Part shown: piece by piece, positions 1-54,997 of the stretch
Layout of the letters: every line of letters starts with the position of its first letter
How positions within the stretch are numbered: position 1 is the stretch's first letter
Source of the DNA: Klebsormidium nitens
Taxonomy: Eukaryota; Plantae; Klebsormidiophyceae
Length of the DNA: 54,997 nt
Reading direction: 5' to 3'
Assembly (NCBI GenBank): GCA_000708835.1
Contig: DF237540.1
Coordinates: 1-54,997, forward strand
The notes under the pieces: model-generated
Database searches by the model: none
What the model was told of the DNA's origin: nothing
What the model saw: the letters and a program-made list of their open reading frames with translations, nothing else
Program-made: the position numbers and the translations under genes

Positions 1-546
1 TACCTGCTAAAGCTAAGGAGCCAAAGCAGAAGGTTGTCACCAGGTCAGTTCGTAAGGCTGCCAAGAGGGCGCGAACGACCTGAGAGTTTTTGTAAACCAA
101 CTCTCAACTGTTTCCTGACAGAATTATTGTTCAAAGTTTTACAGGCCCTGTGACAACGAAGTTCGTGCGGCCACGAGTACCGTTCCGCCGACCTAAAAGG
201 GGGCCCAACCGCTGGTTTCCTGCCACGTGTCAGCGCCAGGTTGGTTCCCCTTATCTTGCGTTGCTACAGAGCCTCTGTCTCGCCTAAAGTTTTCGTTCTT
301 TGACCGGAACTTGAAGCGGAACGCAGACGGAACCGTGGATGTACATCAACGGTTAGGATCGAAGTCGACCCACAAACATCTGAAGTCAGATTGTCCGTCT
401 ATAAGTACAGAATAATCTGGCTTTCCTAGATTGACCAGGGTGTTGGTCTAATTGGAAGACCTAGCGGGGACATCGGGTAGGTCATTCCCCAGTCGTACCT
501 AGGGAACTGGCAGTTCATAAGTCGACCCTCGGGGCGAAGCATCTTC

Positions 547-689
547 GGGTGTTAGCCTGCGTCGGATTAAACCCCGGCGCGGTCGCAGAGCATCGACCCA
601 GTAGACATTGTGTTCGCTTCCCGCTCCGGTCTTCTGGGATTGTCGCGAGGGGTCGCCCAGATTACCGGGTTCGAAACCCGGAGCACCCA
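547..689 (+). ncRNA. candidate tRNA-like (Pol III-type) structured RNA, 143 nt, not a canonical tRNA
   Basis: GGGTGTT (547-553) pairs with AGCACCC (682-688) as a 7-bp acceptor-like stem with one G-U, followed by discriminator A689. Perfect T arm CCGGG-TTCGAAA-CCCGG (665-681) containing B box GTTCGAAAC. TTTT at 694-697. The interior is ~70 nt longer than a tRNA and has no canonical D or anticodon arm. Confidence 0.5.
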
Positions 690-1021
690 TATCTTTTGTT
701 CCGTACGCATGTGCGTTCGTCAAGATGGTGTATGGCTGTAGTAGCTTTGAGAGACAAAAATGTTGCGTGGATTCCAAGCTATAAGTTTAAGCTTGATTAG
801 CTTTCACGTCCGGAAGGTTTGACGGAGTGATATCTTCGGATGTCATTCCGCCGGAAATTCCGGAACTTTTGCTGAGCGCAGCAGAAGGTTTGAGATATAA
901 GTTTATTTCAGATTGACATTGTTAGAGGATGGTTCGAAGTGCGGTGGCTCATGGCTTATCGAACTCCGTCCCATTCTCTGGAACACAATTTTTGCTGAGG
1001 CAAGCATTAAAGTACATAACT

Positions 1022-1850
1022 TTAACTACGAAATGTTTGGGTGACGGCGGTGAGAGATAGCGAGGTAAATACTCTACCCCGCTGTCTACCACCGTCCGTT
1101 TTGCTGAGCAGAGCAAAGTGGTTCGGCTATAAGCGTAGTTTGACGAGACCCACTTTTGGACAGATGTCACAATATAAGTTTATTGGACACATCTCTCCCG
1201 TGGTGGGCGGCGTCATAAGAAGCTCTGGCTAAAGGAGCAGGCTTCTCATGACGTCATCCACTGCATCAACCCACATTTTGCTGACATTCCACCGCCAGCG
1301 GAAATATAGTTTATTTCCACCCGTTCAGAACCAAGGGTCGTCAGCAGAGCAATTGGGTAGCATGCTCATAGTCGCTCCGCTTGCCTCGACCCTTTTGGTG
1401 TTACCCAGATGGACAATTTAAGTAGATTGTCAGACCTTGTGGGAGGTCGGGTTGGAATAGCACAACTGGCTACGGCCAGGGACTTACAGAAAGTTGACAG
1501 TGTTTTAACCGACCCCCACAACAGCACCAAACTTCTTGTTGTTAACACTGACAACAAATTGCTGACGTTGCAAAAGATTGCTGAACGCAGCGTGAGATCA
1601 CCGGATACCAATGCGGTAAAGTTCAAACCTCGTGAGGTTGTCTTTTTGCCGTCGATGATCTTTGAAGTTCCGCGGTGAAACCTGCGTCGCTCGATGCGTC
1701 GCGCGGAACCGGAATTAGACCGGTGGTCACTGTCCACCGTACGATCGGAACCACAAAATTGATATCCACTGGTTTCAGTGTTTATAAGGTAAAACTTACT
1801 GACTTGTTTCATGGTACAGGGTGACCAGAAGCAAGCCCGGTGCTGAGTGA
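1022..1850 (+). pseudogene. decayed ORF of unknown family (probable TE or viral accessory gene)
   Basis: One reading frame (containing track ORF 1409-1678) gives protein-like sequence for ~800 nt, broken only by isolated TAA/TAG/TGA codons and no obvious frameshift. No recognisable domain. Confidence 0.3.
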
Positions 1851-1899
1851 TGGGCTAGGCAGTCTGCTACAGCCCTCACTCAACGCCGGGCCCCGCCTC

Positions 1900-2774: not shown

Positions 2775-3554
2775 TTGCACGATAGATCAAGCAAGTCTTA
2801 GCGCAGGTTCTCAATGAGATATTGAGTTCCTTTGCCCAGTTACGTTACGAATGCGGAGAGCTAACTTCTCTCCGCGCGAAGCCTTTCGACTTGTATCTAC
2901 TAACGGTCGGATTTCTGCCTATCGATCTACGGTACTCTAATACTGAGTAAGCATCGTGCGGCTCTCCGGAGTCGCACGTGGTCACTAACGACTCCCGGTG
3001 CTAAACCCTGAAGGACGGAGACTCCGCATTCTGCAAGTCGAACTTGTACCGCGCCGCGGCTTAGCGCGCACACTGTCCCTGCAGCAGCAAGTGTCTGCAT
3101 GCCACGTGTCACAATCTTACACGCGCGCAACCCTGACCAGTGGGACTTCCGCAGAGGGCGGGAGTATTCAGAGAGCACACTGCAGCTCTTAGGTGACGTC
3201 AAGCCTGACCTGAGTCTGACATGAAATCGGATTCGTGTGCCACTGCGCACTCTCAGAAAATGCTCGGGAAGTCGGGACTTTTGACACAGATAGACAACTT
3301 ACGGCTACCGCAGACTACGAATATTTATGCCAGTGCACAATATCGAACTTTTACGCGCTCGGTGAAATTCAGGTACCATCGTCAGGGGCTAGTTTAAAAA
3401 CGCCAGGGTAGTCTAGGTTTACGGGGAGTCCCGGGGGGGCCGCCGCAGTTGACAGCTACCTAAGGCTGCAACCCCCGGTCGAGGTCTCCCGTAGACTCCG
3501 GGACCGAACTACTGAGTGCACTGTACTATCTCGCGCAGACTTGGATGAAATGCT

Positions 3555-4376
3555 ATGACCTCGACAAAAGACCCCCGGAACTTACCGGCTGAGTATGCGC
3601 GCCGGTGGGTCGAAGCCGACCCCCAAATCGAAGAGCCGGAGTACCCAAACCCCGGCCTGCAAGGGGTTAACCTGAGGGGCATCAGCCGGATCTACCCAAT
3701 CCCGGACGGAGAGCCGGAGTGGGGCTACGAAGCACACCCTGACGGAGGCCTGGACGAAGTACCCTTGTGGCGCGAGGGCAACCGGGAGCGGCTGTACTGG
3801 CTCATCGACTTCATCAGCATGGAGGGGCCCAGCAAGTACCCTGCCGTGTGGGAGTGGGAGGAGCGACGCCTGCAGTACCGGCGTGACTGGCTGCAGCGCA
3901 TGATTCTGGAGTGCCGCAACGAACCCATGTTGGCGGGCTTCAGCACTCTTCCCCGGAGGCGGGACGAGTTAGCGCAGATAGACTCCCTGTTCATGATGCA
4001 CGCGGCCTACGCAAGGGACCTCCTGAAGGAAGATGCCCTCCGGAGGCTAGACACCGAGGCGGTGGAGTTCCAGACGGCCGCCACCAACAACCGGCGCCTG
4101 GCCTACCCCTGGGAAGCGGCGCTGGGACCCCCGGTGGATGCCCCCGCGTTCAACTTCAACACCCGCACGGCCCGGCTGCTGGAAATGGAGCTAGGAGCAT
4201 TGGTGGGGCGGGCGCACTCACTGTCTGCGTTGCTGGCGCAAAGGGAGGTGCGGCGCTTCCATCAAGAGAGGACCAGGGAGCTGATCGCCAAGCACCGGAG
4301 GGGGCTGATAGCGGCGCGTGAACGAGATCTTCCAATCCCACAGCCACGAGCGGAGGCAAGAGCGGAGGGCGCTTGA
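3555..4376 (+). CDS. 273-aa intact ORF1 of the element, possible Gag-position protein, unknown family
   Basis: ATG-initiated, uninterrupted, GC3-rich, predicted helical and charged. Lies directly upstream of the MTase-RT region. No CCHC knuckle recognised. Confidence 0.55.
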   Translation: MTSTKDPRNLPAEYARRWVEADPQIEEPEYPNPGLQGVNLRGISRIYPIPDGEPEWGYEAHPDGGLDEVPLWREGNRERLYWLIDFISMEGPSKYPAVWEWEERRLQYRRDWLQRMILECRNEPMLAGFSTLPRRRDELAQIDSLFMMHAAYARDLLKEDALRRLDTEAVEFQTAATNNRRLAYPWEAALGPPVDAPAFNFNTRTARLLEMELGALVGRAHSLSALLAQREVRRFHQERTRELIAKHRRGLIAARERDLPIPQPRAEARAEGA

Positions 4377-4964
4377 GCGCGCCTGGGCCACGCAGGTCGA
4401 GCAGCTTACAACGCTGCCATCTGGACCGGACGCCCGGAGTCCTGAACCCACCGGGACCCGGCGAGGCGGCCCCCGGTAGGAGGGACCACCCTGGGCCGGG
4501 AGCATGGAGGGCTACCCAGCCAGGGACCACCGCCAGACTACTTACGACCACCTGGGGAGGCCGGACCTCCCACCGGGATGGGCGTGGCGCGGCCCGGACA
4601 GCAACGCCGTCTACCGTCCGGGAGCTGCACGACTTCCTCGAGATCCACCTCAGGACCGGGGAGGAGGCGCAAGCTGAGAGCCAGAACCGAGCTCACGTCG
4701 GCGACTTCCGGGGCGAAGACTACCCCCAAATGGCGGATAGTTTTGCTGCAGATGCAACACCAACGGCGGCAAGAGCCGCCCCCGGCACCGGCGGACGAGG
4801 ACGAGACGCGGCCGTCCCCAGTGCCGGACTTGGCGGACTTCCAAGAGTGGAGCCCGCCACGTGAACTGGGACGAGCTGCCCCAGGCGTTCATGGTCAATC
4901 ACCACTCTACACCGGAGAAGCAGTGCGTCGAGATATGTAAGCGGCTCTGTACCGGGAGGGGGAG

Positions 4965-6074
4965 ATGATTTGGGCCATCGACGAACACCACACCCGAATG
5001 TTCGGGGACGACAAGTGGCTGTGCGTGCTGCTGCTTTTTGGCGGCATTGGGGCGGAGCTGGAGGGGCTACTGAAGGCCGGAGTCAAGATCAGGAAGGTCC
5101 TGTATGTGGACAACGACCCGATCAGCCGGAGGGTTTTTGGACACCGGCTGAGGGCCCTCCACCACGCCTACCCAGAGCAGCTACCTGAGCTGACCTACCC
5201 TCCACCGCCGCACGGCGCTACCCTCGAACATCAGGGACATCGGCAAACTGGAGCTGGAGCGCCACATCGGGCGCGAGGCACGGCACCCAATCGACCTGGT
5301 GACCGTGTCTTCGCCATGCCAGGGCTTCTCCCGGGCCAATCGACAGGCCCGGGGATTGGAGGACCCCGCTCCACCCTCTACCTGGAGGCACTGCGCGTGC
5401 TGTCAACAATCTGACGCCTTCAACGCCCGTGGTCAATCGAACCGGGCTACATCTTCGAGATGGTGGACGCGAGCGACCACGCCAATCCGCCCGCCCGGTG
5501 GGGGTTCCAACAGATGGAGCTCATCAACGGAGGCTACGCAGACAGCGGCATCCGGCTTGACGCGGCAAAACTAGGGTCGCGGCAGCCCACCGGACCCGCG
5601 TGTTCTGGACGAACCTGGCGCGCGCATGTGACATCCAGGAGCGATACAACCAGTTCGAACGCGAGTGTGGGTCCGGCTGGACGCGCAGGACGCGCTAGAC
5701 AACTTCCGGACAGTACAAATGGCGGCCCAGGACGACCCCGCAATACGGGGTTACTACTGCGTCAACGTGAAGGGGGAGCCACTGCAGACCTTTCCCACTC
5801 TGGTGGCAACCCCGAGCTCCTACGCCTTCCGCTTTCAAGCCCCTGACCAACCGGGGCCGGGGTTGGTGTACGACCGCAGCGTCCGAGAGTGGCAGGAGCC
5901 CAACGCCGACGAGCGAGAGCGGATAATGGGGATGCTGCCGTGGTCAACCCGGGGCTACAACATACCGGAAGCAGAGCGCGCATGAGGCTCATCGGAAGCG
6001 CCATCAACGTTCGCGCCTACACCTGGCTGTGCACGGAGATCCGCCGCTGGCGGGTCATCAACAAGGACGAATGA
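4965..6074 (+). pseudogene. DNMT3/DRM-like DNA (cytosine-5) methyltransferase domain, frameshifted
   Basis: Motifs in canonical order across several frameshifts: I VLLLFGGIG (FGGIG 5037-5051); II KVLYVDND; IV IDLVTVSSPCQGFS (catalytic Cys codon 5317-5319); VI GYIFEMV; VIII AAHRTRVFWTNL (5582-5617, cf. DNMT3 AAHRARYFWGNL); IX ERERIMGM; X RLIGSAINV. Confidence 0.9.
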
Positions 6075-6649
6075 AGGCGCGCTGGCGGGGGCGCAACAAT
6101 CGCCCCCGGCGTGACGGGTGTTCCGACTCACCCTCAACAAAAGCCGCAAGTACCAAACCAGCTGGCGGACCGCCGGAGTGCTCAGCGTCCCGCAGCTGGG
6201 GGGGGGAAAGGACAGGGGACTAGAGATCCCAAAACGAAAATCCCTGCAAAGGCCGGAGAGCCCAGGGGAACCGCAGAGAAGCGAGAGGGAAGAAAGGGTG
6301 ACCAGCCCCAGGGGTTAACCGGAGAAAAGCCCGGGAAGGTCAACCAAGGAGGTGGGGCCCAAACGGCCTTAGGGCTAGGGCAGTCCGAAAGGGCCTTGCC
6401 CCCGGAGGGGGGCAAACCACTAACACCCGGTCAGGGTGATCAAGAGCAACGCTGGGAAACTGCCCCGGAGACAAACAGGGAGTCGGAGCCACGACGGGGA
6501 AGAGGGCTTAGAAGAGCTCCATTCCCTGGAAACAGGCGGAAGGCAGTTGGGACCGGAGCTTCAAGCAGCAGCTGTGGGGACAGCACCGGAGGAGAACGGC
6601 GCAAGCCAATCAGTGGGGCCAAGGGAGCTGAGAAACCCTTTGAGTGGGG

Positions 6650-7349
6650 AGACGACCAGATATGGCCGGGACTGACACGGGAGCAGAACACAGAGGCACG
6701 AGGGAAGTCCAGGAGGAGTTTCGGGACATCTTCGCGTGGTCCATCTACGACCTCAGCGACACCGCCATCGAGGGGGTGGAGTTCGAGGTGGACTTCAACG
6801 ACGACAAGCCCATCTGGTCCCCCAAGCGGCGCTACTCCCAGTACGAGAGGGACCTGCTGAAGGCGTACGTGGACTCAGAGGCTGGCCGCCAAGGTCATCG
6901 CGCCCAATTGAAGCTACCCCCGCGCGTCAAGGAGCCTTTCGCCGCCGCCACCGTCATGCCCCGCAAGAAGGACGCGGAGGGAGCGGCGGATCTGCGGCGA
7001 CTACCGGCCCCACAACGACAAGACCGTCCCTGACAAGTACCCGATGCTGATTGCGGACGAGCTGTTCGACGATCTGGGGGGGAGCGACTGCTTCTCCACG
7101 CTGGACCTTCGGATGGGGTACCACCAGATCCGGATCAGGAAAGGGGACCAGTGGAAGCTGGCCTTCTGGGGGCATGACGACCTGTACATGCCCATGCGCA
7201 CCCCCTTCGGGCCCAAGATGCTCTTTCAGCGTCTGATGGACCGCGTACTCCGGGGGCTACGGGCGACCTGGCGCGGGCATTCATCGACGACATCATCGTC
7301 CACGCCAAGGGATTCCGGGCCCACCTGGACGCCCTGCGCGGAGTCTTCA
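6650..7349 (+). pseudogene. Ty3/Gypsy reverse transcriptase, frameshifted and truncated
   Basis: EVQEEFRDIFAW...KPIWSPKRRYS...MPRKKD...RICGDYRPHNDKTVPDKYPM...FSTLDLRMGYHQIRI...KLAFW...PFG...FQRLMDRVL, and the YxDD-equivalent FIDD at 7280-7291. Confidence 0.92.
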
Positions 7350-9300
7350 TGTGACGATTGGGCTATGGTTAAGTCTAACCGCACAATCGCACAAGTGTTA
7401 ACCTTCGGGTTATGCCAGTTTGCCGACGTGTTGGCATGTGGCCATTATTGATGTGACATAATTAATTGTAATTATGCCACTAATGCTAAGATGTATGGTA
7501 GGGCAATCATTGTGTTTAAATCTGTTCAGTCCGTTCAGTTCTAAACAGTTCGTTAGTCAATGTCGGTTGCTGTCATGACCAGGATTGCTTGGCGTGGCGC
7601 ACTGTGCTCTACTATGCGGTTAGTAAGTAAGCTACCTCAACAGCTGGACGGAGGACTTAGAAATGATTGGATGCAGCCCTCGAGTGCGCTCGAGACTGCC
7701 CCTCCATGATTCAGGTCTTCACTGAATGCGAGCGAGGAACAGGGCTTGGTTCAACTTGCGGGGATCATTCGAAGTGCGAATTCCCAACCAGCAAGCAGAA
7801 CTGTCTTGAGCTGAAAGACAACATTTTTACAGAGCAAGCGCCTTCGTCCGAGTATGCCTGTGCACATCCATGGTTTCCGCACATGGCTGCCGTTAGTGTT
7901 TCGTAGTTATCCTGGGCCAGCGCTTCGCTTAAGCTGGCCAACCGTCACAACTGCACTGTAATGCGCGAGCCCACCCACGCTTACCCGTTCACGACCTGTA
8001 CCCTAATGGTATCGGAGTTATACTACTCCGAGTTAACCACCGCTAATGTAATTCCCCGATAGGTAGAGCGCTTATAGAGCTACCAGTGCATCAACAAGGA
8101 TCAGCAGGCAGCGGAAGATAGATGGAACTAACGCGTGGTGTGTCAGCCGGACAAGTGTAACACTAACGAGAGCGTCACACAAGGGAGTGTCCCATACCAC
8201 TCCAGCTAACCAGCCAGACTACTATCCCACTCAGTCCGACACGTAACGGATACAACACAAGATGAACTCACCACTGGGTCTGCATTGCATGAGTCATGGC
8301 GCGATATGCTGCAATTGTGGCCGGTACTGACTAAAGTCAGAACAAGGTGGATAAGCCCTCCGTGAGGGTACACAGTCAAAACGTCACAACGTCTTTTCGG
8401 CACAAAGGTTGCCGGGTGCCTGGTGACATATAGCTATACAATGCTGGCGGTGCCAGCCAAACTGCTACGGAGGCGAGGGCCTCGATACTACAAACGGAAA
8501 GCTAGAAGCAGAAGCTCTTACTATAAGAAACAAGGGACCCTAAGCGAAAAATGTCCAAGTTACTATAATGAGCTAGCGAATCGCGTCTCCTCGGAGGTCC
8601 TCAATCCCTAGCGGACTAACAAAGCACACAGGCTACCGTGAGTAGTCTAGAGTATCAACTGCTTAAGCCTCTATCGAAACGCGAAGTCCTCGGAGTCCCA
8701 CCGCCACTCACAGCTCGACACCTAGACTAATCCGGCTGTCCTGAATGATTGGTCATCGCAACCCCCGTGGGTATCGACGGTGCCGATCACTACACCTCGC
8801 TAATGGGCCTCATTATTGAACCGTAAATCTGAAGCCCACACACCCGAAATCCTAAGCTAAAACCCCTGCGTCGCGGCCCTGTCGCGGCCGCCACGTCGCT
8901 CCCTTCAATGCCCGCTAGCCCGCTCGCGCGCTGCTCCGTCACTAGTGGTCCTGCTCACTCCGGTGGGGGTTCCGCGGCAATACAGCAGTCTAACGTCGTA
9001 TTAGAATTTCAACAAATCCACTGGTGGAAATCAAAATCCGCCGCCCCGGTGGAGGTTTCAGCCAACATCCAGATTCCTAGAGTGAACTTTTTAACCGCGA
9101 GTTTCGAGCTGCGGCGGGCCGCGGTCCTTATGAAATCCGAACTTTCACCTATCGAAACTTCAAATTTGACTCGGAACCGCAGCCAGCTTATCCACCGTCG
9201 GATCGCGAATCTGACGGCCCATCGACCAGCTCGGTATCGAACCACATCGATCTGAAAATGGCGTGGTTGCGTTGTGTAATTTAATTTTGTCATTTACATG
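7350..9300. repeat. probable non-coding TE or LTR-like sequence interrupting the RT
   Basis: Abrupt compositional switch at 7350 starting TGTGACG. The inverse CGTCACA occurs at 7943, 8173 and 8382, but none is flanked by a matching target-site duplication. No convincing ORF. Confidence 0.3.
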
Positions 9301-15532: not shown

Positions 15533-18500
15533 ATGGCGGGTTCTCGCTGCTGCTGGCGCCCCCTGGGGTGCCTGCTGGTGGTGCTCCTGACGTGCGGCGT
15601 GCTCCCGCAGCGTGACGCCGCGGTGCTGGGGATAGACTATGGTGCAGAGTGGCTCAAGATGGTGGTGGTCAAGTCGGGGAAGCCCATGATCTCGACAGTC
15701 ATCAACGAGATGAGCAAGCGCAAGGCGCCCGCTATGGTGGCCTTCAGTAACGGGGAGCGCCTGCTGGGAGAGGAGGCGGCCGCCATAGTTGGCAGGTGGG
15801 GGCACAGCACTCGAATGGTGGTTGCTGGACAGAGTAGCTGCTGGATCAAGTGGTGTTGGGGTTGCGGGTTGCTGGAGTCCCCCTGTTGCTCAAGTGATGT
15901 AATTGCAGGATCACTGTGGTTGCTGAAGCGGCATTGTTGCTAGATCCTTGTAGTTGCTGGAGTGCTTTAAACTTCTGATTGCTATACCGTAGGTGCTAGA
16001 TTGGTGAGATCTGCTGGAACATTGATTCTTAATACCAACGTAGGTGCTGGAGTGGTGTGATCTACTGAGATGATGTGGTTTCCAAAACAATGTGTTGATT
16101 GTGACGTGCTCATGTGGAGTGAGACAAGAGGCACTTGCTATTCTGCTTTCTTTTGTCTTGATTGCAACAGCCTCATCCAAGAGGCGCGGGTGAGGGCCCG
16201 GTCTAGCCGCGGGTGCAATATCTCCTCACCATAGCTAGCCTCCATACCCATCTGTCAGCCCCGCCAGTGTATCTGGGTTCTGAAATGGAGGCAGGCGTGT
16301 TGTCCATCATGCTTTGCCTGGATGCTCTAGCTACCTCTGCACGCCTGCGCCGGGTACGCCTGCTGTGGTTCAGACCCTGCTGCTGCCCCGCCCTGACCCG
16401 GTGGCACGTGCGGCGAGGCAGGTACCCTGAGCGTGTGTACCAGCGCGTGCGCGACTTGCTGGGGGTGGCCCTGCCTGAGGCGCGCGCGCTGCTGGCGGGG
16501 CGCTACCTGGCGTACGACCTGGTGGAGGACGCGGAGCGGCGCACGGTGCGCATCCGCACGCACGACGGCAGTGCGGAGTACGGCGCGGAGGAGCTGGCGG
16601 CCATGGTGCTGCGCTACGCGGCGGAGCTGGCGCGCGCCCACAGCAAGGCGCCCATCCGCGATTGCGTGCTCACGGTGCCGCCCTTCTGGGGGCAGCGCCA
16701 GCGGCAGGCCCTGCTGGACGCTGCGCACATCGCAGGGCTCAAGGTCAGCCGCGCCGCGCTCCTCCACTGCGCTGCACTGGCCCCTGCCGGGGCGATTTGT
16801 GCGTGCGAGTGCCTCATGTGCGTTATTTACACCAGGACTGATTTGCACGTCATCACCTCTGCGCACTGGCTCCCTGGAGTGCGCCGTAATGGGGATGACT
16901 TTGTGCCCGGCATGTGTTTGGACTGGGGCCACTTCTCAAGCCTCCGAGGGGCCACCGTCAGCAGCGTGGCCGCTGTCGTCAGCGTGAGTCAGCGCGCTCC
17001 CCCTCCTGGCGTGTGCAGGTGATGGCCCTGCTCACGGAGCCGAGCGCTGCGGCGCTGCAGTACGGCATCGACCGCAAGTTTGAGAACGCGACGCAGCTGG
17101 TGCTGCTGTACGACGTGGGCGCCGCGGCCACGCGTGCCACGCTCCTGCGCTTCTCCGCGTACGCAGGCAAGGACCGCGGCCGCAGCGCTGTCATTGGGCA
17201 GGCGCACACGCTGGGCGTGCGCTGGGACCCGGACCTGGGGGGCCAGGCCATGGAGGCGCGCCTGGCAGAGCACTTTGCGGACGAGTTCAACCAGCAGGTC
17301 AGGCCCGCACCGCCCCACCACTCTGTTGTACACACGGAGCCAATGTGCCTGCCCCGCTAGGGCTCCTGCCTTCCGTTCTGAGGTGTTGTGCGTTGCCGTC
17401 CCTGTGTTGACGAGCTGATCGCGCGGCTGGTGCAGGTCGGGGGCGGCACAGACGTGCGCGCGTCCCCCAAAGCGATGGCCAAGCTGCTCAAGGCGGTGCG
17501 CAAGACCAAGGAGGTCCTCAGCGCCAACAGCGAGGCGCCCATCTCCGTCGAGTCCCTGCTGGACGACCACGACTTCCGGTGAGGGAGTCGAGCTGCCACG
17601 TTTCGCCCCATGCCGCCTGCGCGTCTTGCTGCCCCGCTGTGGCGCGGCCCCCCTGGGCCCTTGTGTGCCGCTCTGGCAGCCCCCTCCGCGCTGTTGCTGA
17701 CGCGAGCATGCGCTGTGCTGCGGCTGCAGGTCGTCCATCACGCGGCGCCTGTTTGAGCAGCTGTGCGCCGATGTGTGGACGCGCGCGTTGGCTCCGCTGC
17801 GCGATGTGCTCGCTGAGGCTAACATCACGGCAGCGGACCTCGACGCGCTGGAGGTCATCGGGGGCGCCACCCGCGTGCCGCGCCTGCAGGCCGCCCTCAC
17901 AGACTTCCTGGTATGCGCGCAAAGTGGGACACTTGCCCATGGGCCGCCTCAGATCCCTTATCCGCCCAGTTGCAGTTATTGGTGTCTACCTTCGTGGCGG
18001 CTCGTCATTTGCTCTTGCTGTGCTTCGGTCGCGGGTTCCAGGTCCCTGTCAGCCAGTCGTGCCTTGCTCCGACGTGTGGGCGGCGGTGTGTGTGCAGGGC
18101 GACGTTCGCGGCGTGGACCGGCACCTGGACGCGGATGAGGCGGTGGCGCACGGGGCCGGGCTGCACGCGGCCAACCTGAGCGACGGCTTCAAGCTGCGCC
18201 CCTTTGGCGTCAACGACGGGCTGCCCTACGGCCTGGTGTACCGCCTCGACGGCGCGCGCGGCAGCGAGGACGCGTCCGAGGAGGGGGCCGAGGCCGCCGC
18301 ACCAGGCGCGCCGCGCAGCCTCTTCCCGCCGCTGCGCAAGCTGCCCACCAGGATCATCCGGTGAGCGCGCCGCCACGCAACCGGCCCCCACTGGTGCCGC
18401 CATGCCTTTAAGCGGGCCCGCTGTGGCTTGCCGCCACTGCCGCTGTCTGTCGCCACCCTGTGCCTCGGCCCCACCCCTGCACAGCGGCCCTTCCTCGCTC

Positions 18501-32925: not shown

Positions 32926-33325
32926 TAAAAAATATCCCTCTATTGTAGATCTGACCATGTTACACTTCAGAGGTTTCAAGATGTGGAGTCACCTACAATT
33001 GGTCAGTATGCTGTTTTAGGTTGAAATGTTCAGACGTGAATATGTGTGGCTCAACTCGCAAATGTTCCGCATTCAAGGTTTCCATGTGAAGCTGTAAGCT
33101 GGATTCAACAATCTTGATATTTCAACACGTTGTACATTCAACTAAAGTGGACATTCTAGGCGGCAATGGGAGCACTGCTTGCACACGGAGCATCAAGCGG
33201 GAAGACCTAAGGCTGCTCCATTATGATGCAGAGTAAACAACTCGTTCGACGAGACTTTTCTAGGAACCGGGTAAAATCACTGGGGGTCGCAGCTGGCTGG
33301 TTGCCGGCACGGAGCCGCCCCGATG

Positions 33326-36300
33326 TCATCGCTGTGCGATGCTGCCGCCCGGCCCCGGTATGCACGCGGTTTGCGGGATGCGCGCCAGGAGGCTGTCCAC
33401 GGAGGAGAGGAAGGAGGAGCGGCTGTAGTGCTCCTGCACGAACTCCACGGCCGCCTCGCGCAGCGCCTGCCACGCGCCCGCGTCCCCGCTGATGGCCACC
33501 ACCTGCGCGGCCATGTCCGCGCTGTCGCGCGCCGCCAGGATGCCGTCGCTCACGTTGACCGCGCCCAGCTGCGCCGCGATGCGCTCCATGGCCACCACCG
33601 GCACGCCGTGCGCCATCGCGTCCAGCACCTGGGGACAGAGGCGGAGGGGGGGGGGTCACGGGGCGCACCAAGAAAGCGGAGCGGACCAGGAGGCAGCAGC
33701 CTTGGACCTTGTTCCGGCATGAGCAGCCTGACGTTGATCGGTGTGCCAACCACCCTCTCTCGACAGGCGAGTGGACACATCGCAATGCCGCCACTCTACA
33801 GTCTAGACATGGACATGCTGACCACTTGCACCTACAGAACCAGACGCTGCATCGCGCGGCACGCGTGGCCCCGCGCCGCGGGCGCACCTTGATCTGGATG
33901 CCCGCCCCGTACTGGTGCGGCGCCACAAAGAGGCGCGCGCTGTCGTAGTACGGCCCCAATTCGTCCACGCTGCCCAGCACGTGCACCCCCCCCGCGCGGT
34001 CGTCCAGCGCCAGCAGCTCGGGGGGGGGCTCCTTGCCGATGACCACGATGCGCGCGCGCGGCTGCTGCCGCCGGATGAGCGGGAACACGTTGGCCACGAA
34101 GTGCTTCACGGCGTCCCCGTTGTAGTACATCGTGTTGTGGAAGGCGCCGATGAAGAGCAGGTCCGAGCGCGCGCCGTACCCCGGCAGCGACAGCGCCGGC
34201 TCCACATAGAACGACAAAATCTTGGTCTGCACGTGCCCGCCCCTGCACACACCACCGCCGCGCCGTCAGCCCCACGCCGCCCGGAGGAGGCCGCCAGTGG
34301 CCGGGCAGACAAGAAGGCAGGAGTCAGGGAGAGGGCGCTGGCGCAGAGCCAGCCGGGCCAGGCACGGCGGGGGACAGGGGCCTGGAGCAGTGCCAGGCGC
34401 GCATGTCCGCTGCCTGCGTGCGAGCAGGGCCCGTCCCTGCAGCTGGCCAGCCCCGCGCGAGGAGGCTCACCCGTGGAACTCTGCGACGCGCTCGCGGTCG
34501 GCCTGCGTGACGAGCAGGCTCTCGTTGGCCAGGGCAAAGAGGCGCAGCTCCTCCACGCGGCCCTGCTGCACCGCCGCCAGCAGCGCATCGTCGTGCAGCG
34601 CCTGCGCGCGCGCCTCGTCGCGGGTGTACCACAGCGCCTGCGCACGCAGCAACACACGCAGCGCTCAGCCACACACTGAGGCCACAGCGCGGCACAGCCA
34701 GGCAGGCAGAGCAAGGAGGACAGGACGCAGTACACAAGCGGCCGGCTCACAGGCCCAGCCTGCCCAGCGCAGGGCAGCAGTAACATTGCAGCGGGGCAGG
34801 CGCGGCGCCTCACCTCACTGTCAAACACAAGGTACCTGCACACGCAGCACACGCACTGTCAGTAGGGGCAGGGGGCGAGGTACAGCACAGCTTCCGGGGG
34901 GGGACACAGCAGCCTGAGGGAGGGGCGCAGAAGTGCTGGCACATGAGCACAGGACAAGTGCCCTGGCCGCAGCAGGAGACCCTTTCCGAAGGGCCACTCA
35001 CGCGCGGGGCTGGTGCTGCTTGATGCAGGCGTGCGCGTTGAGGAAGATGGGGGGCCGGCTGACGATGACGGCGTCGTAGAAGCCGGCGCGCTCCTCCAGG
35101 AAGGCGCACAGCTGCTGCGTGCGCTCGGCCAGGAGGGGGTCGCTGTACTCCCAGCCCGCGGTGGCGTTCCAGATGACCTCCACGCCGCGCTGCAGCAGCT
35201 GCGCCACGGTGCGCGGGGGCCGGCGGTCGAGCATGGGGTACATGGTGACCAGCGCGCGGAACTGCGCGAGCGCGTGCAGGATGAGCAGCGCGCGCCCGTA
35301 GCCGCTCCCGGTGTCGGGGTCCCCCAGCAGCTGGTCCACAAACAGGATGCGCTTGGCGCCCGTGTTCTCGCGTGCGCACAGCACGCTGGCGGGGCTGGAC
35401 GGGAAGTGCCGCGACTCGATGAACGGCTTCCACTTGCGCCGGAAGATGACCTCGCTGGCCGCCATAAGCGCCAGCGCCTCGTCGCGCCCCTTGGAGCTGT
35501 ACTCGTGGTGCGTCACCGCGGCCGCCGGCTGGTACAGCACCGCCAGCCGCTGCTCGTACCGGATCTTCATCTGCAGGTCGCTGTCCTCGTAGTAGTGCGG
35601 GAACGTGTTCGCCTCAAACCCGCCCGCCGCGGCAAACACGTCGCGGCGCACCAGCAGGCAGCACGCGCTGCAGTAGTCCACGCTGCGCACGTAGTTGTAC
35701 TCGGGCGCTGCCGGCGACTGCCCGCGGCCGTACCCCGCGCAGCTGCCCTGCGCGTACACCAGGCTGCCCGCCTCCTGCAGCAGGCCCGTCGGGTAGACGA
35801 GCTTGCAGCCGACGGCGCCCGCGTCCAGGCGGCCCTCCAGCGTGGCCACCAGCGCGGCCAGCGTGCCGTTGCCCACCTCCACGTCGTTGTTGAGGTACCA
35901 GAGGTAGCGCGACCAGGGGTGGCTCAGGTTGAACGTCGCGTGGTTGTTGGCGCGCGCAAAGCCGAGGGGCTTCTCGGAGCGGCCGCCCACGATGCCCTCC
36001 ACCTGGGCCAGCAGCGCGGGGGTGCCGTCGCTGGAGGCGTCATCAAACACCACGACCTCAAACGGGATCTCGGTGCCCAGCGCCGCGATGGATCTGAGCG
36101 CCTGCATCGTCTTGTTCACGCTGTTGTGCGCCGTGATGATGATGGACACCAGCGGGGCGCCTCCGCCGAAGCGTGGCATGCTAGGCAGCGCGCCCGCCAT
36201 GCCCGGCTGGCCCTCTACTTGCGCCACAGCGAAGCGCGCGGCGCTGATGGGGGGGCGGTCGCGCGTGTGGCGCATCTTGTACGTGGAGAGGCAGCCTGCG

Positions 36301-36422
36301 CCGCCGCTCTCGAGCTGCACCATGAGGCGCAGGAAGCCCCAGTGGCTGTGGACCACCAGCAGCAGCAGGCCCGCAAACAGCAGCACGAGCCGCGAGGGGG
36401 CCAGCATGCGCAGCGGGCCCAT
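33326..36422 (-). CDS. two-domain glycosyltransferase: N-terminal TM anchor + GT2 domain + GT4/GT-B-like C-terminal domain
   Basis: Exons 36422-35002, 34835-34814, 34637-34471, 34242-33888, 33628-33326. GT2 motifs SIIITAHNS, VVVFDDASSD, LGFARANN, YLNNDVEV, VDYCSACCLLVRR, YYEDSDL. GT-B motifs RILFVDQ, LLFIGAF...NGDAVKHF, LFVAPHQYGAGIQIKVLDAMAHGVPVV. Confidence 0.9.
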
Positions 36423-37360
36423 GACGGCACTACCGCGGCAGGCACCCCTACATAGGGGAGGCAAATGCCAGCTAGAATCGGGGGGGGGGGGGCGCGAATG
36501 GGGCGTCCTCTGCCGGCCTGCGAATGGGGCTGTCCGGGATGGGACCTGCTGTTCAGCAGTTCAAGTTTGGCCTGAAGGTTGAGGGGAATGGGCTCTGAAA
36601 CGTGAACCAAGGTCGCTTGGATCCACTGTCCGCCCTTGAAGTTGAACTTGAAATTGGAGCCAGATCTGCCACCGCCTCCCTGCTGCAGGTGCCAGGACTG
36701 GTAGAGGTCTGCGCGTGTGCTCACTTCCCTCTGCCCTGGGCCTCGGATGTTCTGCTCTAGCTAGAGCAATTTGCAAGATCTCACGTCTCTTTTCAGATCT
36801 CTTTTCAGATCAGCCTGCATTTGCCTGGTCCGGTAGTACCGTACCGTATGGGTTACTCGTAGGTACCCGCAACCCCGGGTGGCGGCAGTACTTTTCTCAG
36901 GTGCGTTCAGCCGTCGATCTGGCACGAGGCTACCATTCGACGGATTTCAGGCGCCAAGAAAGCACGGGGGAACCAGGCAGGACAGGGGTACTTTCGAAGC
37001 CTCAATGCTGGTAGCAGCTGTCAGACTACCGGTACGGCGTCCAGGTCCAACGGCACACACAGACTTGGCGCGCCACGTTTGGAATCGGATCGACCGATTT
37101 TGGTAGCTACTACTACTACCGTAGACTCAGGACTGTATAGCAGTGTAGGACTAGCCTAGCCAGATTCCAATGCCGATGGATTCTTGGAAGCTCAGCATAA
37201 GTTGGCCCTGGCAGCGCGGGGCGCCCAAGTCGAGGGGACTGCGAATCCAATGCTGAGAGACGCAGCGTGTGCGGAAGTCTGCCCTCGGTCTACGGGGATT
37301 CCAAAGTCGTTGGGGCCTTGATGGTCGCTGCACAGCTCTGCTGAGAGCGTTGTGGGAGCA

Positions 37361-41602: not shown

Positions 41603-44600
41603 CTAGTCCTCCATGTCCTGTGCATGCTCTAGGAGATAGTTGGCCGCCAGGTTCTCGTTCTTGTCACAAGCGAGAAAGGCTTCGATCACCCTGGCTCGAT
41701 CGAACCCCATGGATTCTAGCTGCAACCACAACCACAGAAAACGCCTCAAGATCAGCGCCAGCTTCCAGTCTTGCTTGACTATTCAAGGGCTCAGTCTTTC
41801 GGAACCTGCCCCACGGGCATTGCGTGAGATTACGATTGAGCGGCCGCAACCAGGCAGGGAGACGACACACGGCTGCCCGGCGTGCATTCCCACCACCCCC
41901 CGCCGCTGCAGAGAGCGCAGGAGAGCCGTTGCCGGCCGGCAGGCGGAGCTGGGCTCACTCTGTCGATGGCCTCCTTCTCCTCGGGCGTAACGTTGATGGC
42001 CTGCGGCGCGCCCCCCCCCATCTCGCCCAGCTGCCCCAAAATGTCCCTGCACGCACACATCGCCACGCGCTGCGCCGTCACACTCACGCAAACGCCTCAG
42101 GGCGCGGCCCCGTCCCTGCGGCAGGCGACTTGCGCGCAGGCATGGCGGCAGACTGCCGCACAGTGCAGACAGTGCGCGACGTGGCAGGATGCGGGCGGTC
42201 AGGAGGGCTCACGCTTCGCCCTCTGCGGCGGGCTCATTGATGAGGCGCAGGAACTCGGCCTGGTGCGCGTTGATGAGCGCCAGCAGCTGCGGGTTCTGCT
42301 TGCCCAGCTCCTGCAGCATCGGCTGCACACACACACACACCCGCCAGTGGGTCAGCGCACTGCCGCAGCCGCCAGCGCACGGCAGGCCAGCCCAGCAGCG
42401 CGGCCCCCAGGGCGAGCAGATGCGCGCGCATGCCGCGAGGCTTGCCTGCGGTGGGAGCCCTCACCTGCAGGATGGTCGGGTTGGCCTGCACCATCTGGCG
42501 CAGCGCTTGGAACTGCGGGTTCTCGCGCAAGAAGTCGAGCGCCCCGGCCGGCCCCGCGCCCGCTGCGGCGCCCCCCCAGCCGGGCATGCCCTGCGGGAAC
42601 AGGTCCAGTGGCGCTGCATTGGGGCCACCACCGGGCGGGCCCGCCGCAGGAGCCGCAGAGGCAGGAGAAGCCGCAGCCCCGGGGGCAGGCGCAGCGTCAG
42701 AGCCTGGAGGGGGGGGCGCAGGAGTGGCGCCGCGAGCAACCACAGGAGCGGCCTCCGCGGTCTCCGGGATGCCCTGATGCAGACAGTGAGGGAGCAGCAG
42801 AGGCAGTCAGGGAGGGGCATGCGAGCCAAAGTGCCCCCGGCCATGCGCAACACCGCAGTGTCTGTGCAGCACAACAGCTGGGGTGCGCAGAGTCTCCCCC
42901 GCAGCGCAGCGCTTGAGCGCGCCTGCGGAGGGCCACTCACGGTGTAGAGGTACTCGACGGCGCGCTCGGGGTTGTTGTACGCGGCGCTCAGGGCCTTGAC
43001 CACCTGGTCGCGCTGGAAGGCGCCGCCGCCCATCTCCAGGATCTGCGCAATGGTGCTCTCCAGCGCGCTCCCCGCCACCAGCGTGGACGCCGCACTGTCG
43101 TACCCCGCCTCCCCCGCCACGCCGCCCACCGCACTGCACACACACACACACACACACACGCGATGCACCACACCTCAGCGCTACAGCCACAGGAGCAGCA
43201 GCGGAGTAAGGAAGGCATCCCCGCTGGCAAGGCATGGGGGAGGCCCTGCAGCGGGCATCAGCTGGCGCGTGGCAGGGGCTGTCGCAGAGGAGGGCTGCGC
43301 GCAGAGCAGCTGAGGGTGCACCCAGGGGCAGAGGGGCTTACGGCGCAGTAGCAGCAGCAGCAGCAGGGGCTGGGGCGGCGGCAGCCCTGCAGCAGGGGGG
43401 AGAAGGGGAGAGGGTCAGACCCGCGGGCCAAGCAAGGGCGGGAGTGCCAAGAGAGGCTTTGCCTGGTGGCGCAGCAGGAACGGGCCCTCCGGTGGGACCA
43501 TGGCGGGCCCCACGCAGGCCGCTGCATCGGCCGTGCAAGGGGGGCTGGCCCGCGCTGGCCCGCTCTGCTATGCCTCAGGAGCCTGGCCCCTGGCAAGCGG
43601 CAGCAGGGAGCAGCGATAGGCGTGGCAGGGCCTAGCACAAGAAGCAAAGGGAGCAAAGCATGGAGGACGCACGCAGCAGGGGGCGCCGCAGCAGGGGGAG
43701 CAGCAGCAGGGGGGGCAACAGCAGCAGGCGCAGCGGTAGGGGGCGCCGCAGCGGGGCTGGCAGCGGGCACAGGAGGAGCAGCCGAGGGAGGGGCCGCAGC
43801 GGGCTTGGCCTGCAGACAGAGCAAGGGGGGGGTGGGGAAAGGCAGGAGCAAGAACGGCAAAGGACGGGCACTTGGAGCGGCAGCGATTGGAGTGCAGGAA
43901 GCAGTTGTGCGGGGCAGAGGAGGCAAGGAGGGCAGCAAGTGCGAGGTCCTGATCATAGCCACCACAACCTGAAGTGGCCACTGAAGCAAAACTTGCTCGC
44001 ACTTGTGAACAAAACTGCAGAGGCACAGGGGCGGGCAGAGAGGTATGGCAGATGCACAGGTGCCGGCAGAGAGGTATGGAAGATGGAGGTTGCAAAGGAG
44101 AATGATGCACTAATTATCAGATCAACATAGAAACAGGAGAACCCAGAAAGAAACTCAACAGCAATGGAATCAAGAAGGTATGATAACATTGAAAGGAAAA
44201 GCAAGAGCGGCGAAAAGAAAACAAGGTCGGAATGTTGGCGCAAGCAGGTGCAGTCCATGCATCCGTACTGCTGGGTGCCGCGTGGCGGATGCTGCTGACC
44301 TTGGTGAGCATGACCACCACGAAGCCGCTCTCGGCGATGCTGTTGTCGGCCACGCTGGTGTCGTCCTTAAGCACCTTGCCCTGGTAGATGAGCACCTGAG
44401 CGCCAACCGGGTACGCCTCTGCGCCCTGCGCTGCCGCCACCTTGCGCTTCACCTCCGCAATCTGCGCAGCGCAGCACAGCAGCACACCAGGGGCACTCAC
44501 CACCACGGCAGCAACAGCGATGGGCAACCCCATCACTCACTTGACAGCGGCAATTCGCACCCGGAGTCACACACTGGATGGGCAACACAGGAACCGAAAG

Positions 44601-44723
44601 GGGAGGCAACCGTGAGGGAAATGCAAGCAGCACAGTCAGCGCCTCGCATGAGCTCACCTTGTCGGTTGCATCCACCTCCAGGCTGAAATTCTGACCCTTC
44701 AGGGTCTTCACCGTAATCTTCAT
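41603..44723 (-). CDS. RAD23: ubiquitin receptor RAD23 (UbL-UBA-XPCB-UBA)
   Basis: Exons include 44723-44658 ([17 protein letters not shown]), 44461-44300 ([13 protein letters not shown]...FVVVMLTK), 43809-43673, a probable short Ala/Pro exon near 43341-43390, 43133-42941 (UBA1: [17 protein letters not shown]), 42773-42465 ([21 protein letters not shown]), 42322-42213, 42046-41959 and 41719-41603 ([31 protein letters not shown]). Confidence 0.97.
43137..43158. repeat. (CA)n microsatellite, read as a (GT)n tract at a RAD23 3' splice site
   Basis: About 11 CA units; a similar shorter tract lies near 42327-42340. Confidence 0.9.
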
Positions 44724-45605
44724 CTTCAGAACTTCCGTTAGGCGTCGGGCGGAACCGACAGAGTCTCTTCCTGGCAAGTTGTAAACGTCCTCTCCTTGCT
44801 GTCAAATGATCTGAACTTTGCTCAAAAGTCTTCCAAGTTGAGACCCAGGGCCGTTCCTGGCAGCAACCGCTGACAAGTACCTACGTAGTTATTAGCCCGC
44901 GTGGCGCACAAGGAGTTCAAGCACTGTTCAACTTCAAGTTCAAAGCAATTGTCAGAGAAGAAGGAACTTTATTCCTGCTATCCCATAGACCCGAAAATTG
45001 GAAAAGGGTTTGGCTGACGCTTCTTGGCACATAGCGCAAAGCGGTACTACTGTTTCTGTGACACCCGTGGGCCGTGGATGAAGTTCGCGGAAAACCTCAA
45101 GAACTTAATGTATAATCTGGAGGTTTTAAAAAGCATCATTCGAGTCATCTCAGACTCTGCATACCGGTATGCCGTACGGTACTAAAACATCATGCAGGTC
45201 TAGGTTACTGTAGGTACCTCCTACCATCGTATTTGAATTTTCTCAAAAATCCTCAAAATTTGGATCCGCAATAGGCCCGCCTGAGGGGATCCCCGGGAAG
45301 GCCGTATATCGAGTCTTGACAATCCGTGCCCCGGGCACTGGAAAACGACGGAATTGGAGCCGCGATTCCGGCGACCGCGGTTTTGATTAGATAGGGTGGT
45401 CAACACTTAACCCAAGTGAAGTACGGTATAATGTTGGGCTGGCCCCTGTACCACAGAGATGAGGACAGTGCAGCCAGGGCTCCGTTCAGGCAGCAAAAAC
45501 TTGGTAGTCCTTGAAAGCGTTTAACTTTTTGGTGGCGCTCATTACATCTGTAGACTGCCTATTGGGCCTCGTCATTTGGACTCTCCTGTGCGACTGCTTC
45601 TGTAG

Positions 45606-47708
45606 ATGATGGCGGCCAACTCCAACCTACCACGGCGAATTATAAAGGTAGGAAGCAAGCTTTGCTTTGAAGACTCCAAACCCTAAATACATGCTTCGCT
45701 TGTTGCACACATATCTTAGCATAACGTGCATATTTTTAGCTGTTATTCTCACTGGAATCTGCTTTGCCGTACAGGAAACACAGCGGCTGCTCAGTGAACC
45801 AGGTATGTTTACAAACTGGAGTCTCTTCCAATGGTGTGATGAAGCAGATGACGAGCAGCGTGTAACTCTGTTGTGTGCACAGCGAGGTCCTCGCTCGCCC
45901 GCGGAAGATGCTGGGGCAACCGGATGTTGCCGGCCCTGCTGATCTTCTTCCTTTTCCATGCTGCAGCGCCGGGGATCAGTGCCTCACCGGCTGAGGACAA
46001 CTTGCGCCACTTTAATGTGATGATTTTAGGGCCAACACAATCTCCTTATGAAGGTAGGGGGAGCAGGCAAAGATTGGGTTGCACTTGGACAGATCGGTGG
46101 GGTGTTGGAAGAGCTATTTGTGCACCATTCCCGGCATGAGCAGAGACTAGCGACAGACGACAGCACGACAGCATGACAGGGGCGGCAGCTGGCTCACTTT
46201 GTGTCTGTTTTGTCTGCAGGCGGTGTTTTCAAATTGGAGCTATTTCTACCAGAGGATTACCCGATGGCACCCCCAAAGGTCACCATTTTGCTTTGCCAAC
46301 CTGTGCTTCTAGCTCCGCTGACAGCCGCTTGCCTGCTGTATGCGTTTCAAGAAAAGGCAACTGCCTTTACGAAGACACCTCAGACAATTGGCATGGGATT
46401 GTGGAGACAATGACCCTCATCACTGACTACCTTGCTTGTTGGGAAGCCTTGTCCACAAGCTAAACTCCTTGGGTTTTGTTTTAATCGTTGGTGTTGTATC
46501 TTGGTTAGAATGTGTTGAAACGCTTTCTTTCTTATCAAGGCCTTCCTCACTACGGAGGCTCATTGTGATGCAACGTGTGGATGTGCAGGTCCGATTCCTT
46601 ACAAAGTTATATCACCCAAATGTTGATAAGGTGAGTTTGGAGATGGTTCCAGAGTATTATAGACCAGTGCAATCACCTGAGCTCTTTAATTTGTGCCCGA
46701 GTACAGCAGATCCTGAGTTCTCCTGATCGTGCACAGGGCAAACCTGTGCTTCTGATTGGGTTGTCTCAAGCCACACTTTCAGCCTGATTGAATTGCAATT
46801 GCTGTCAAGCCTGATATTGCCTACTTCAGCCTGAGTACTCAGAGCACAGATTTTAATGTTGGGTCTCACTTTTGCAGCTAGGACGCATCTGCCTCGATAT
46901 TTTGAAAGACAAATGGAGCCCTGCCCTGCAGATTCGAACTGTCCTTCTTAGGTGAGAGGTTAGGCAAAGCTGTTTGACTTTGATGCAGTCAGACCATTGC
47001 AGTAGACAGGGCCAGTTCTTACTCTGTGTCCAGAAGCTGCTTGCTTTCTCTGTGGACGACTTGCGGTCACACGCAGACTAATCATGGTCATTGTACTCCA
47101 AGAAAGTGATTGTGGTCAATGTGAATCAAGAATGTGACGCACCCTTGGATTCTGGATGCAGTATTCAAGCTTTGTTGAGTGCACCAAATCCGGATGACCC
47201 ACTTGCGGAGAATGTTGCAAAGCATTGGAAGCAGAATGAAATCGAAGCAGTTGCTACGGGTGAGTGATCTTACGTCGAGTTTTCTAAATTCAGTCAGGGA
47301 TTCTCATTGAGTTCCTGATAGTCGTTCAATTTTGACTTTGGAAGCCTTGACATGTCGCTTGAATGAAACTCCATCTTGTGGTGTTCGGGCCATTGTGAGC
47401 AGATTGAAGAGAGGAGCATTCATCAAGCATTATGCTTCTGGAGCTTACTCTATCATGCTTGCAAAAGGCACCCCACGTTCCGGCAACACAAATACAACAG
47501 TGAAAGGTACTTATCAGAGCAAAAATACTGCATCTCGTCACTTTGATGCATCCGAACAGGCTTCTCTATGTTCTCAATTTTGTTGTATCATCGACCTTGC
47601 TCTAATCTATGCACTTGATCCACTTTCGGAGGAACGAATTCGTGCCTAAACGTTTTGTGTTTACGTGCAGCGAAGGAATGGACACGACTATATGCTGGAG
47701 GTGCATAA
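45606..47708 (+). CDS. UBC13: K63-specific E2 ubiquitin-conjugating enzyme UBC13 (UBE2N; plant UBC35/36), 8 exons
   Basis: Exons 45606-45647, 45775-45802, 45968-46053, 46220-46278, 46589-46630, 46878-46951, 47163-47259, 47671-47708. Protein [40 protein letters not shown]...[71 protein letters not shown]...AKEWTRLYA. Confidence 0.98.
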
Positions 47709-51800: not shown

Positions 51801-51900
51801 GAAAGAGATTGAGGAGGATACCAAGATGCAAATTTGCGGCTGCCTAGAGGTACTCAGTGCGTCAAAGACGCGCACCGAAGAAGAGCCAACATAGCGTCGT
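48830..51900 (+). mobile_element. decayed Ty1/Copia retrotransposon (gag-PR-GAG_pre-integrase-integrase), truncated before RT
   Basis: Frameshifted gag (DLYRDLV...GELAWSLLAGLP), protease region (LTGNKSLF), ELWHRRLGH (~49880), EPLELVHMDV...GGSRFFATFLDNYSKL, TMLEDLGLPKELWAEAVITANYTQNR, and the FMGYE SH3-like region. Boundaries approximate. Confidence 0.85.
50195..50987. mobile_element. non-autonomous CMC/EnSpm-like TIR element (793 bp) nested in the Copia integrase
   Basis: 19-bp TIR CACA(C/A)GCAACCTAGGGTGG (50195-50213 / 50969-50987, one mismatch). TT duplicated at 50193-50194 and 50988-50989. Removing it restores integrase DNYSKLLV-VVPLKQK. Confidence 0.85.
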
Positions 51901-54950: not shown

Positions 54951-54997
54951 TGTAGTTACCTACACTAATCTTGTCTATGTAAACGTTGAACCCGTTA

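Follow-up and report, generated by a model that had tools for sequence, protein, structure and literature searches.

A tRNA-derived unit and a candidate Pol III hairpin array in a nuclear contig of Klebsormidium nitens

Organization of the contig

The window analysed is a complete nuclear contig of Klebsormidium nitens, 54,997 nt in length, in which the ORF at 3549 is identical to KFL_005910010. A tRNA-like unit and an array of hairpins lie within bases 1–1899, which are closed by a gap of 875 N. All of the array and RNA results come from this one copy. The features of this part of the contig are as follows.

3–83, plus strand: end of an ORF, 26 codons, with a K/R-rich tail and its stop at 81–83, cut by the contig start; possible parent element
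400–513, plus strand: box (TATAAG) with short hairpins, a weak unit (z −1.3, 18/200 shuffles equal), with no TTTT of its own before 694
516–521, plus strand: CATAAG box, candidate TATA element, 31 nt upstream of the first base of the tRNA-like RNA
547–689, plus strand: tRNA-derived RNA, 143 nt, with acceptor stem, T arm, a 9-bp hairpin replacing the D arm, and A73 at 689
575–612, plus strand: extra insert 1, about 38 nt, from the D loop to the anticodon stem (from the fold and tRNA comparison)
613–649, plus strand: relic anticodon arm, stem 613–617/645–649, base 38 at 644
618–619, 620–622, 623 and 624–643, plus strand: U32-U33, CCC, G37 and insert of the relic anticodon loop (from the alignment)
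655–664, plus strand: extra insert 2, 10 nt, from the variable loop (650–654) to the T stem (from the tRNA alignment)
694–697, plus strand: TTTT, candidate Pol III terminator (from the sequence)
780–870, plus strand: cassette 2, box 780, hairpin 809–864 with UUCG loop, TTTT 867 (z −6.3, 0/200 shuffles)
867–1284, plus strand: TTTTGCTGA, four copies (867, 990, 1099, 1276), spaced 29, 25, 29 and 29 nt from the box that follows
896–993, plus strand: cassette 3, box 896, hairpin core 922–982, T5 989 (z −3.3, 1/200)
1015–1102, plus strand: cassette 4, degenerate box 1015, hairpin 1043–1100, TTTT 1099 (z −7.6, 0/200)
1128–1157, plus strand: box without hairpin, probably a deleted cassette, TTTT 26 nt after the box
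1173–1279, plus strand: cassette 5, box 1173, hairpin 1200–1264, TTTT 1276 (z −5.8, 0/200)
1305–1396, plus strand: cassette 6, degenerate box 1305, hairpin 1333–1394, TTTT 1393 (z −3.2, 2/200)
1418–1520, plus strand: atypical cassette, degenerate box with a branched hairpin 20 nt downstream (z −4.9), outside the cassette rule given below
1783–1899, plus strand: box with a long hairpin at 1835–1891 (z −5.2), which enters the N gap, its terminator out of view

The ORF tail at 3–83 has no Pfam match, is unlike the ends of 30 proteins compared with it by inspection, and differs from the PHD end of Pol in the adjoining Gypsy family. The tRNA-like RNA had been placed by the original prediction between two decayed ORFs. 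The upstream ORF is borne out by this tail, but what follows downstream is a non-coding hairpin array up to 1899, and recognisable ORFs begin only at 3549, past the 875-N gap. An open frame at 1–150 gave a single weak match, to a repetitive protein, which is taken as spurious, and a minus-strand frame at 1366–1854 (162 codons) has no Pfam match. Bases 1–1899 have not lost CpG, the observed/expected ratio being 0.97. A near-perfect palindrome of 24 nt lies upstream of the array at 331–354. Inspection by eye showed no HDV-like or hammerhead core, and there are no TATAAG-type boxes in the stretch 2775–3548.

Past the gap there is a decayed KnitGypsy-Dnmt3-like element (3549–7350) that is cut inside the RT. 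Its DNA-methylase-like and RT pieces, at 5221–7348, match KnitGypsy-Dnmt3 as presented in the available text of PMC5890265. A protein search with the first ORF of the remnant gave no relative of similar length. Intact relatives of the element end in a PHD finger. One metagenome locus of this Gypsy family, L001, was retrieved; it lacks its 5' region, and the 1.3 kb that follow pol contain neither an array nor a tRNA. Judging by its neighbourhood, the array may belong to a mobile element.

The DNMT-bearing Gypsy of the window and that of L001 each have one in-frame stop, TGA in the former and TAG in the latter, between the methylase and the remainder of pol, and a GC-rich hairpin follows directly after it (6072–6130 in the window, −29.4 kcal/mol; 848–905 in L001, −36.3 kcal/mol). 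From their sequence, stop and hairpin are a candidate stop-codon read-through signal. Section 9 of PMC5890265 gives KnitGypsy-Dnmt3 one Pol ORF and makes no mention of an in-frame stop.

Elsewhere in the contig, two decayed Copia-like remnants face each other at 48800–54997, with inverted matches between 49544–49638 and 54283–54377 and between 50082–50111 and 53813–53842, and with a copia gag match at 54476–54937. The region 44200–47710 has a multi-exon gene on the plus strand that presumably encodes a ubiquitin-conjugating-enzyme-like protein. Head to head with it, on the minus strand, is what we take, by eye, to be a gene with a ubiquitin-like domain. An HSP70 piece and two glycosyltransferase pieces are found at 16207–17022, 33207–34265 and 34998–36560.

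The tRNA-derived unit

The ends of the unit at 547–697 are as originally predicted. There is a 7-bp acceptor stem (547–553/682–688) with one U.G pair and discriminator A689, and a T arm with a 5-bp stem (665–669/677–681), a 7-nt loop and a perfect B box. Pair probabilities in the acceptor and T arm are 0.82–1.0. This end architecture of acceptor, T arm, B box and TTTT occurs once in the window, both strands counted, and in 0/2000 shuffles of bases 1–1899. The fold of the unit has z = −3.1 on the plus strand and −0.1 on the minus strand. ARAGORN at default settings called 0 genes, and an Rfam search with 547–697 gave no significant match (best E 2.2, with mascRNA-menRNA among these best matches), both in keeping with the prediction. 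When relaxed to allow introns, ARAGORN made 24 low-score calls over the window and was uninformative. A tmRNA was rejected, having G3-C70 here instead of G3.U70, a long-helix fold of −54.1 vs −63.3 kcal/mol, and negative ARAGORN and Rfam results. A 5-bp direct repeat (541–545 and 691–695) flanks 546–690, either as a target-site duplication or by chance.

Within the core, the 9-bp hairpin at 557–565/574–582, with its two G.U pairs, has pair probabilities of 0.8–1.0. The other two helices proposed for the core belong to minor folds: no pair of the 581–598 stem and none of the 633–661 hairpin reaches a probability of 0.25, and the latter, when forced, gives −57.6 vs −63.3 kcal/mol. Bases 634–638 are instead paired with 597–601 (probability ~0.98). 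The dominant core fold consists of 597–606/629–638, 583–586/645–648 and a small hairpin at 649–658.

The core had been described as foreign to tRNA and as having no canonical 37/38 intron, and neither description can be kept. An anticodon stem, U32-U33, CCC and G37 can all be placed, and the 20-nt insert at 624–643 is at the canonical 37/38 site. The GGGA of this insert pairs with the anticodon. G15, G18 and G19, at 561, 564 and 565, are at normal distances from the 5' end. The insert at 575–612 pairs with the remnant of the D arm and with the intron-like insert, and competes for the 3' anticodon strand.

A search pattern for the 3' half, modelled on its likeness to tRNA-Pro, was used on viral contigs and retrieved 5 loci, two of which are tRNAs at the match: a tRNA-Pro (L004) and a tRNA-Arg (L006). 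Comparison was made with 161 distinct tRNAs in 126 viral loci, 150 of which are scorable. The eukaryote-type tRNA-Pro of L004 ranks first of the 150, with 20/24 acceptor and anticodon-stem positions in common. The second, L117, is also a tRNA-Pro (17/24) and came from a search with the T arm only. Outside the D region 42/54 positions match L004, of which approximately 20 are imposed by the pattern that fetched it. The match to its acceptor is independent of that pattern: in the acceptor alone L004 shares 11/14 positions, with one compensatory pair, and the next among the tRNAs listed shares 9. Two of 98 further pattern loci, L163 and L187, are tRNA-Pro genes with a 37/38 intron and the same layout, without the extra inserts. 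Both are on viral contigs, that of L187 being labelled giant-virus, and are of the eukaryote-type tRNA-Pro(TGG).

By this alignment, the 143-nt unit keeps the layout of an intron-containing tRNA gene, likely that of tRNA-Pro, having gained two inserts and lost the D stem. The predicted Pol III tRNA mimic, belonging to no ordinary tRNA or catalogued family, stands to this extent, with descent from an intron-containing tRNA gene in place of the foreign core.

The D stem has 2/4 pairs, and there is an A at 8 and a C at 14, such that U8 and A14 have been lost. A single-intron tRNA was rejected, since no single deletion outdoes controls with a shuffled core; the best of 1716 scores 101.4 as a cloverleaf, and 18/25 controls score higher. 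The canonical anticodon fold is −56.2 kcal/mol against −63.3 kcal/mol for the best fold, a cost of ~7 kcal/mol that arises because the inserts pair with the scaffold and the intron. Because the two extra inserts and the loss of the D stem refold the RNA, including its anticodon arm, it is probably neither spliced nor charged. The gene likely no longer serves translation. RNase Z and the CCA enzyme could still mature the ends of an intact 12-bp acceptor/T helix.

The cassette array and its possible transcription

The cassette array, which the original prediction missed, is the main and more surprising result. A cassette is here a TATAAG-like box, a hairpin downstream of it, and then TTTT. By this rule, which was set post hoc with the data already seen, there are six distinct consecutive cassettes, the tRNA-like unit being the first, with boxes at 516, 780, 896, 1015, 1173 and 1305. 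A seventh match, at 786, is a second box for the hairpin of cassette 780. Shuffles have a mean of 0.19 matches and a maximum of 3 (300 shuffles), and there are 3 in the remaining 52 kb on both strands. The distances from box to hairpin are 31, 29, 26, 28, 27 and 28 nt, where the value for cassette 896 depends on a hairpin start (922) chosen by the analyst; the fold from 918, with the outer pairs counted, gives 22 nt. The five plain hairpins are 60–80 nt and pre-miRNA-shaped (z −3.2 to −7.6), and have no sequence in common. The TTTT of the atypical cassette at 1418 is inside its stem, at 1503. The tRNA-like head is split from the hairpins by the TTTT at 694, and read-through to 870 would join them.

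The motif [T/C]ATAAG is present 8 times on the plus strand of 1–1899 and 0 times on the minus strand (shuffle mean 0.54; 0/1000 with as many). TATAAG-type boxes (384–1810) sit at the tip of stem-loops that are specific to each unit and have UAAG-N-N-type loops, which may resemble the yeast RNase III tetraloop. The only strict B boxes in 1–1899 are at 669 and 1621, and that at 669 alone adjoins the six-cassette run. The hairpin cassettes are devoid of strict A and B boxes; raw matches to a loose, B-like pattern are seen in the array at 816, 887, 931 and 1120. Within 547–697 there is neither a strict nor a loose A box. There are four copies of TTTTGCTGA in 1–1899, while the remaining 51,779 nt have none, both strands counted (0/1000 shuffles). 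This sequence, at 25–29 nt from the boxes, is a candidate USE. In Arabidopsis the USE sits at a fixed 23–24 bp from the TATA, according to the available text of PMC8287931. The plant-type USE ACCCAYAW is found at 368, 685 and 1269 at variable spacing from the boxes; this consensus is that given for Micromonas in PMC8287931.

The tRNA-like unit and the array have no second copy in the window. Searches of metagenomes and of bacterial and archaeal genomes gave 0 homologues, those of viral contigs gave only ordinary tRNAs or chance matches, and blastn against phages gave one 28-nt match (E 0.3) that is not a homologue. Because no homologue was found in the sequences searched, there is no cross-species covariation.

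The sequence has blocks of tRNA ancestry, an intact 12-bp acceptor/T helix, a B box and a repeated geometry of box, hairpin and TTTT. The locus is read here, with a probability of about 40%, as a cluster of small RNAs made by Pol III, probably carried by a mobile element, with a tRNA-like member and at least five pre-miRNA-shaped hairpins, which may work like the cassettes of BLV, foamy viruses and the TMERs. Each TATAAG-like box would set a Pol III start 26–31 nt downstream, at the base of the hairpin, and TTTT would end the transcript. The 3' end of the tRNA-like RNA would be trimmed by RNase Z, with CCA possibly added, without splicing or charging. The B box of this unit would help the cluster to recruit TFIIIC, and the stable RNA may serve as a decoy. 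The hairpins would be cut by the host DCL and loaded into AGO, leading either to the silencing of host or rival-element RNAs or to the saturation of silencing. The cluster would be part of a mobile element or viral remnant, the ORF of which ends at 83.

Retroviral miRNAs have been found by means of a signature in which the 3' base of a stem-loop carries a Pol III terminator, as described in the available text of PMC3993851. DCL1, DCL-New, AGO1/5/10 and AGO4/6/9 go back to the ancestor of the Klebsormidiophyceae, and plant miRNAs derive from Pol II transcripts, according to the portions of PMC7994812 at hand. In the window and L001, the 21-mers of the hairpins have no target beyond those of shuffles (best penalties 4.0–6.5 vs 3.0–7.0). 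The fuller proposition, that an element or virus remnant of a streptophyte alga has its own Pol III battery of miRNA-like hairpins and an intron-locked tRNA decoy and so steers or swamps DCL/AGO, is rather unlikely.

The main rival is one long RNA, because the boxes also cap unit-specific stem-loops. It would be made by Pol II from the upstream ORF, or by Pol III read-through from the tRNA-like head, and it seems doubtful as an account of the locus. The tRNA-like fold would then be a cut signal for RNase P or RNase Z that frees the hairpin array, and the UAAG-type stem-loops would serve as marks for RNA processing instead of TATA boxes. The stem-loops count against the Pol III cluster, since a DNA promoter needs none. 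The flanks of ten boxes pair best with their own partner, which 681 of 100000 permutations equal by pairs and 15 of 100000 by energy, and G.U pairs favour the plus strand at boxes 896 (−9.1 vs −0.4) and 1128. Several T tracts double as the 5' arm of small hairpins formed with downstream bases, the strict B box near the run is a single one, and the terminators are mostly just T4, all of which agree with a long RNA. Other features argue against it: the T tracts are at the 3' base of 5/6 units, the spacing of box and hairpin fits that of a TATA and a start site, no stem encloses the box that precedes the tRNA-like unit (0 cross pairs), and five boxes (400, 1015, 1173, 1305 and 1783) fold equally well or better on the minus strand.

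Less probable than the long RNA, and unlikely, is a tRNA pseudogene or SINE-like head in structured, non-functional repeat DNA, with the array as either a modular repeat that has decayed or a folded, non-coding portion of some dead element. The transposon debris all around, the loss of D stem, U8 and A14, and the direct repeat that brackets 546–690 would all be expected of this, but the hairpins are near-perfect though unrelated in sequence and the short motifs between them have been kept. The acceptor/T helix is likewise intact over its 12 bp, with a compensatory pair, no poly(A) tail is present, and CpG is not depleted in 1–1899.

It is very improbable that the unit functions as a tRNA-Gly(CCC) gene split by three introns (at about 575–612, 624–643 and 655–664). 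Removal of the three segments does generate a 75-nt cloverleaf with an ARAGORN score of 115.3, in which G15-C48, G18, G19 and the T loop are in place, and the 37/38 insert pairs with the anticodon. That score is beaten by 6/30 controls with a shuffled D region, however, and the cloverleaf retains the defects in the D stem, at 8 and at 14 noted above. The junctions that would be needed have no bulge-helix-bulge: a 4-bp central helix occurs in 1/156 D-region deletions, one that takes out the D loop, the 655–664 junction has 1/4, and the 3' bulge at 37/38 is 5 nt. The acceptor stem, furthermore, is Pro-like.

Least probable of all is the original suggestion of a self-encoded primer, with which an LTR element would start its reverse transcription. 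An intact, tRNA-like 3' end and a Gypsy remnant 2.9 kb off would suit it. Against it, the complement of the 3' end has its sole exact match at the gene (allowing up to 2 mismatches there are 10 matches vs 7.9 expected), no matching PBS is found elsewhere in the window, where the 875-N gap could hide one, and the tRNA-like part of Helenus also fails to match its own PBS in the available text of PMC10886601. A separate search for PBS of the initiator-Met type gave 2 matches vs 3.7 expected.

Relation to known RNAs and meaning

The TMERs of gammaherpesvirus 68 are tRNA-miRNA-encoded RNAs, and the K. nitens locus is like them in having a Pol III-type tRNA-like structure 5' of clustered hairpins that are potential miRNAs (PMC8223928, available text). 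In the same text each TMER unit has a tRNA-like head and a triple A box. The K. nitens locus has a single tRNA-like unit, and its hairpins are preceded by boxes. Unlike a TMER, the K. nitens unit ends in a TTTT of its own that lies 120 nt upstream of the first hairpin. Its host is an alga, and the locus is on a nuclear contig and not in a gammaherpesvirus. TMERs are processed by RNase Z.

The clusters of BLV and foamy viruses likewise consist of several unrelated hairpins of 60–80 nt in <1 kb, with a T tract at the 3' base, as described in the parts of PMC12498455 and PMC3993851 available. According to these, they use internal A and B boxes, with the B box of BLV located after the terminator. 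The K. nitens cassettes differ in having no strict A or B boxes, a recurring upstream TATAAG-type box, and a tRNA-derived member. Its host, its promoter layout and its single, separate tRNA-like unit set the cluster apart from those of BLV, foamy viruses and the TMERs, to which it does not belong.

Among tRNA genes, the unit is most like the intron-containing, eukaryote-type tRNA-Pro of L163 and L187 (that of L004 is intronless) in its acceptor, anticodon stem, variable loop, T arm and 37/38 site. It differs from them in its CCC anticodon, its discriminator A, its two extra inserts, the absence of a D stem and the dominance of an alternative fold.

A tRNA-derived SINE is an element defined by a tRNA-derived Pol III promoter. 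Such a promoter and a mobile-element context are common to these SINEs, to the Helenus TRIMs, which carry tRNA-like sequence in the LTR (PMC10886601, in the text available), and to the K. nitens unit, which has a 5-bp direct repeat on its flanks. The unit differs from both in having no second LTR copy, PBS or A tail, and in that both tRNA ends and the terminator are complete. Solo-LTR ends of the form TG...CA around the tRNA-like unit gave 1 candidate vs about 2.3 expected.

In having an acceptor and T-arm fold downstream of a longer transcription unit, the RNA is similar to mascRNA/menRNA (RF01684). It is 143 nt long, compared with the 56 positions of that model, and has its own B box and terminator. 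Membership of this Rfam family was rejected, the score being 14.2 bits vs a gathering score of 42.5.

The literature covered, with most subscription journals and the repeat databases outside its scope, holds no description of the RNA or the array, for which a prior annotation may exist. The available text of PMC8557442 makes no mention of Klebsormidium. The Pol III hairpin clusters found described are those of animal viruses. On the fuller and rather unlikely proposition given above, the K. nitens cluster would be the first counterpart in the green lineage of the BLV, foamy-virus and TMER clusters. If the reading as a Pol III small-RNA cluster is correct, K. nitens would gain a series of natural Pol III promoters of minimal size, and the intron-locking inserts would show how a non-coding scaffold can arise from a tRNA gene with an intron. 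K. nitens is among the earliest lineages to have both DCL1 and AGO1/5/10. The same reading would mean that genomic parasites of the green lineage can exploit the small-RNA machinery of the host through self-contained Pol III genes.
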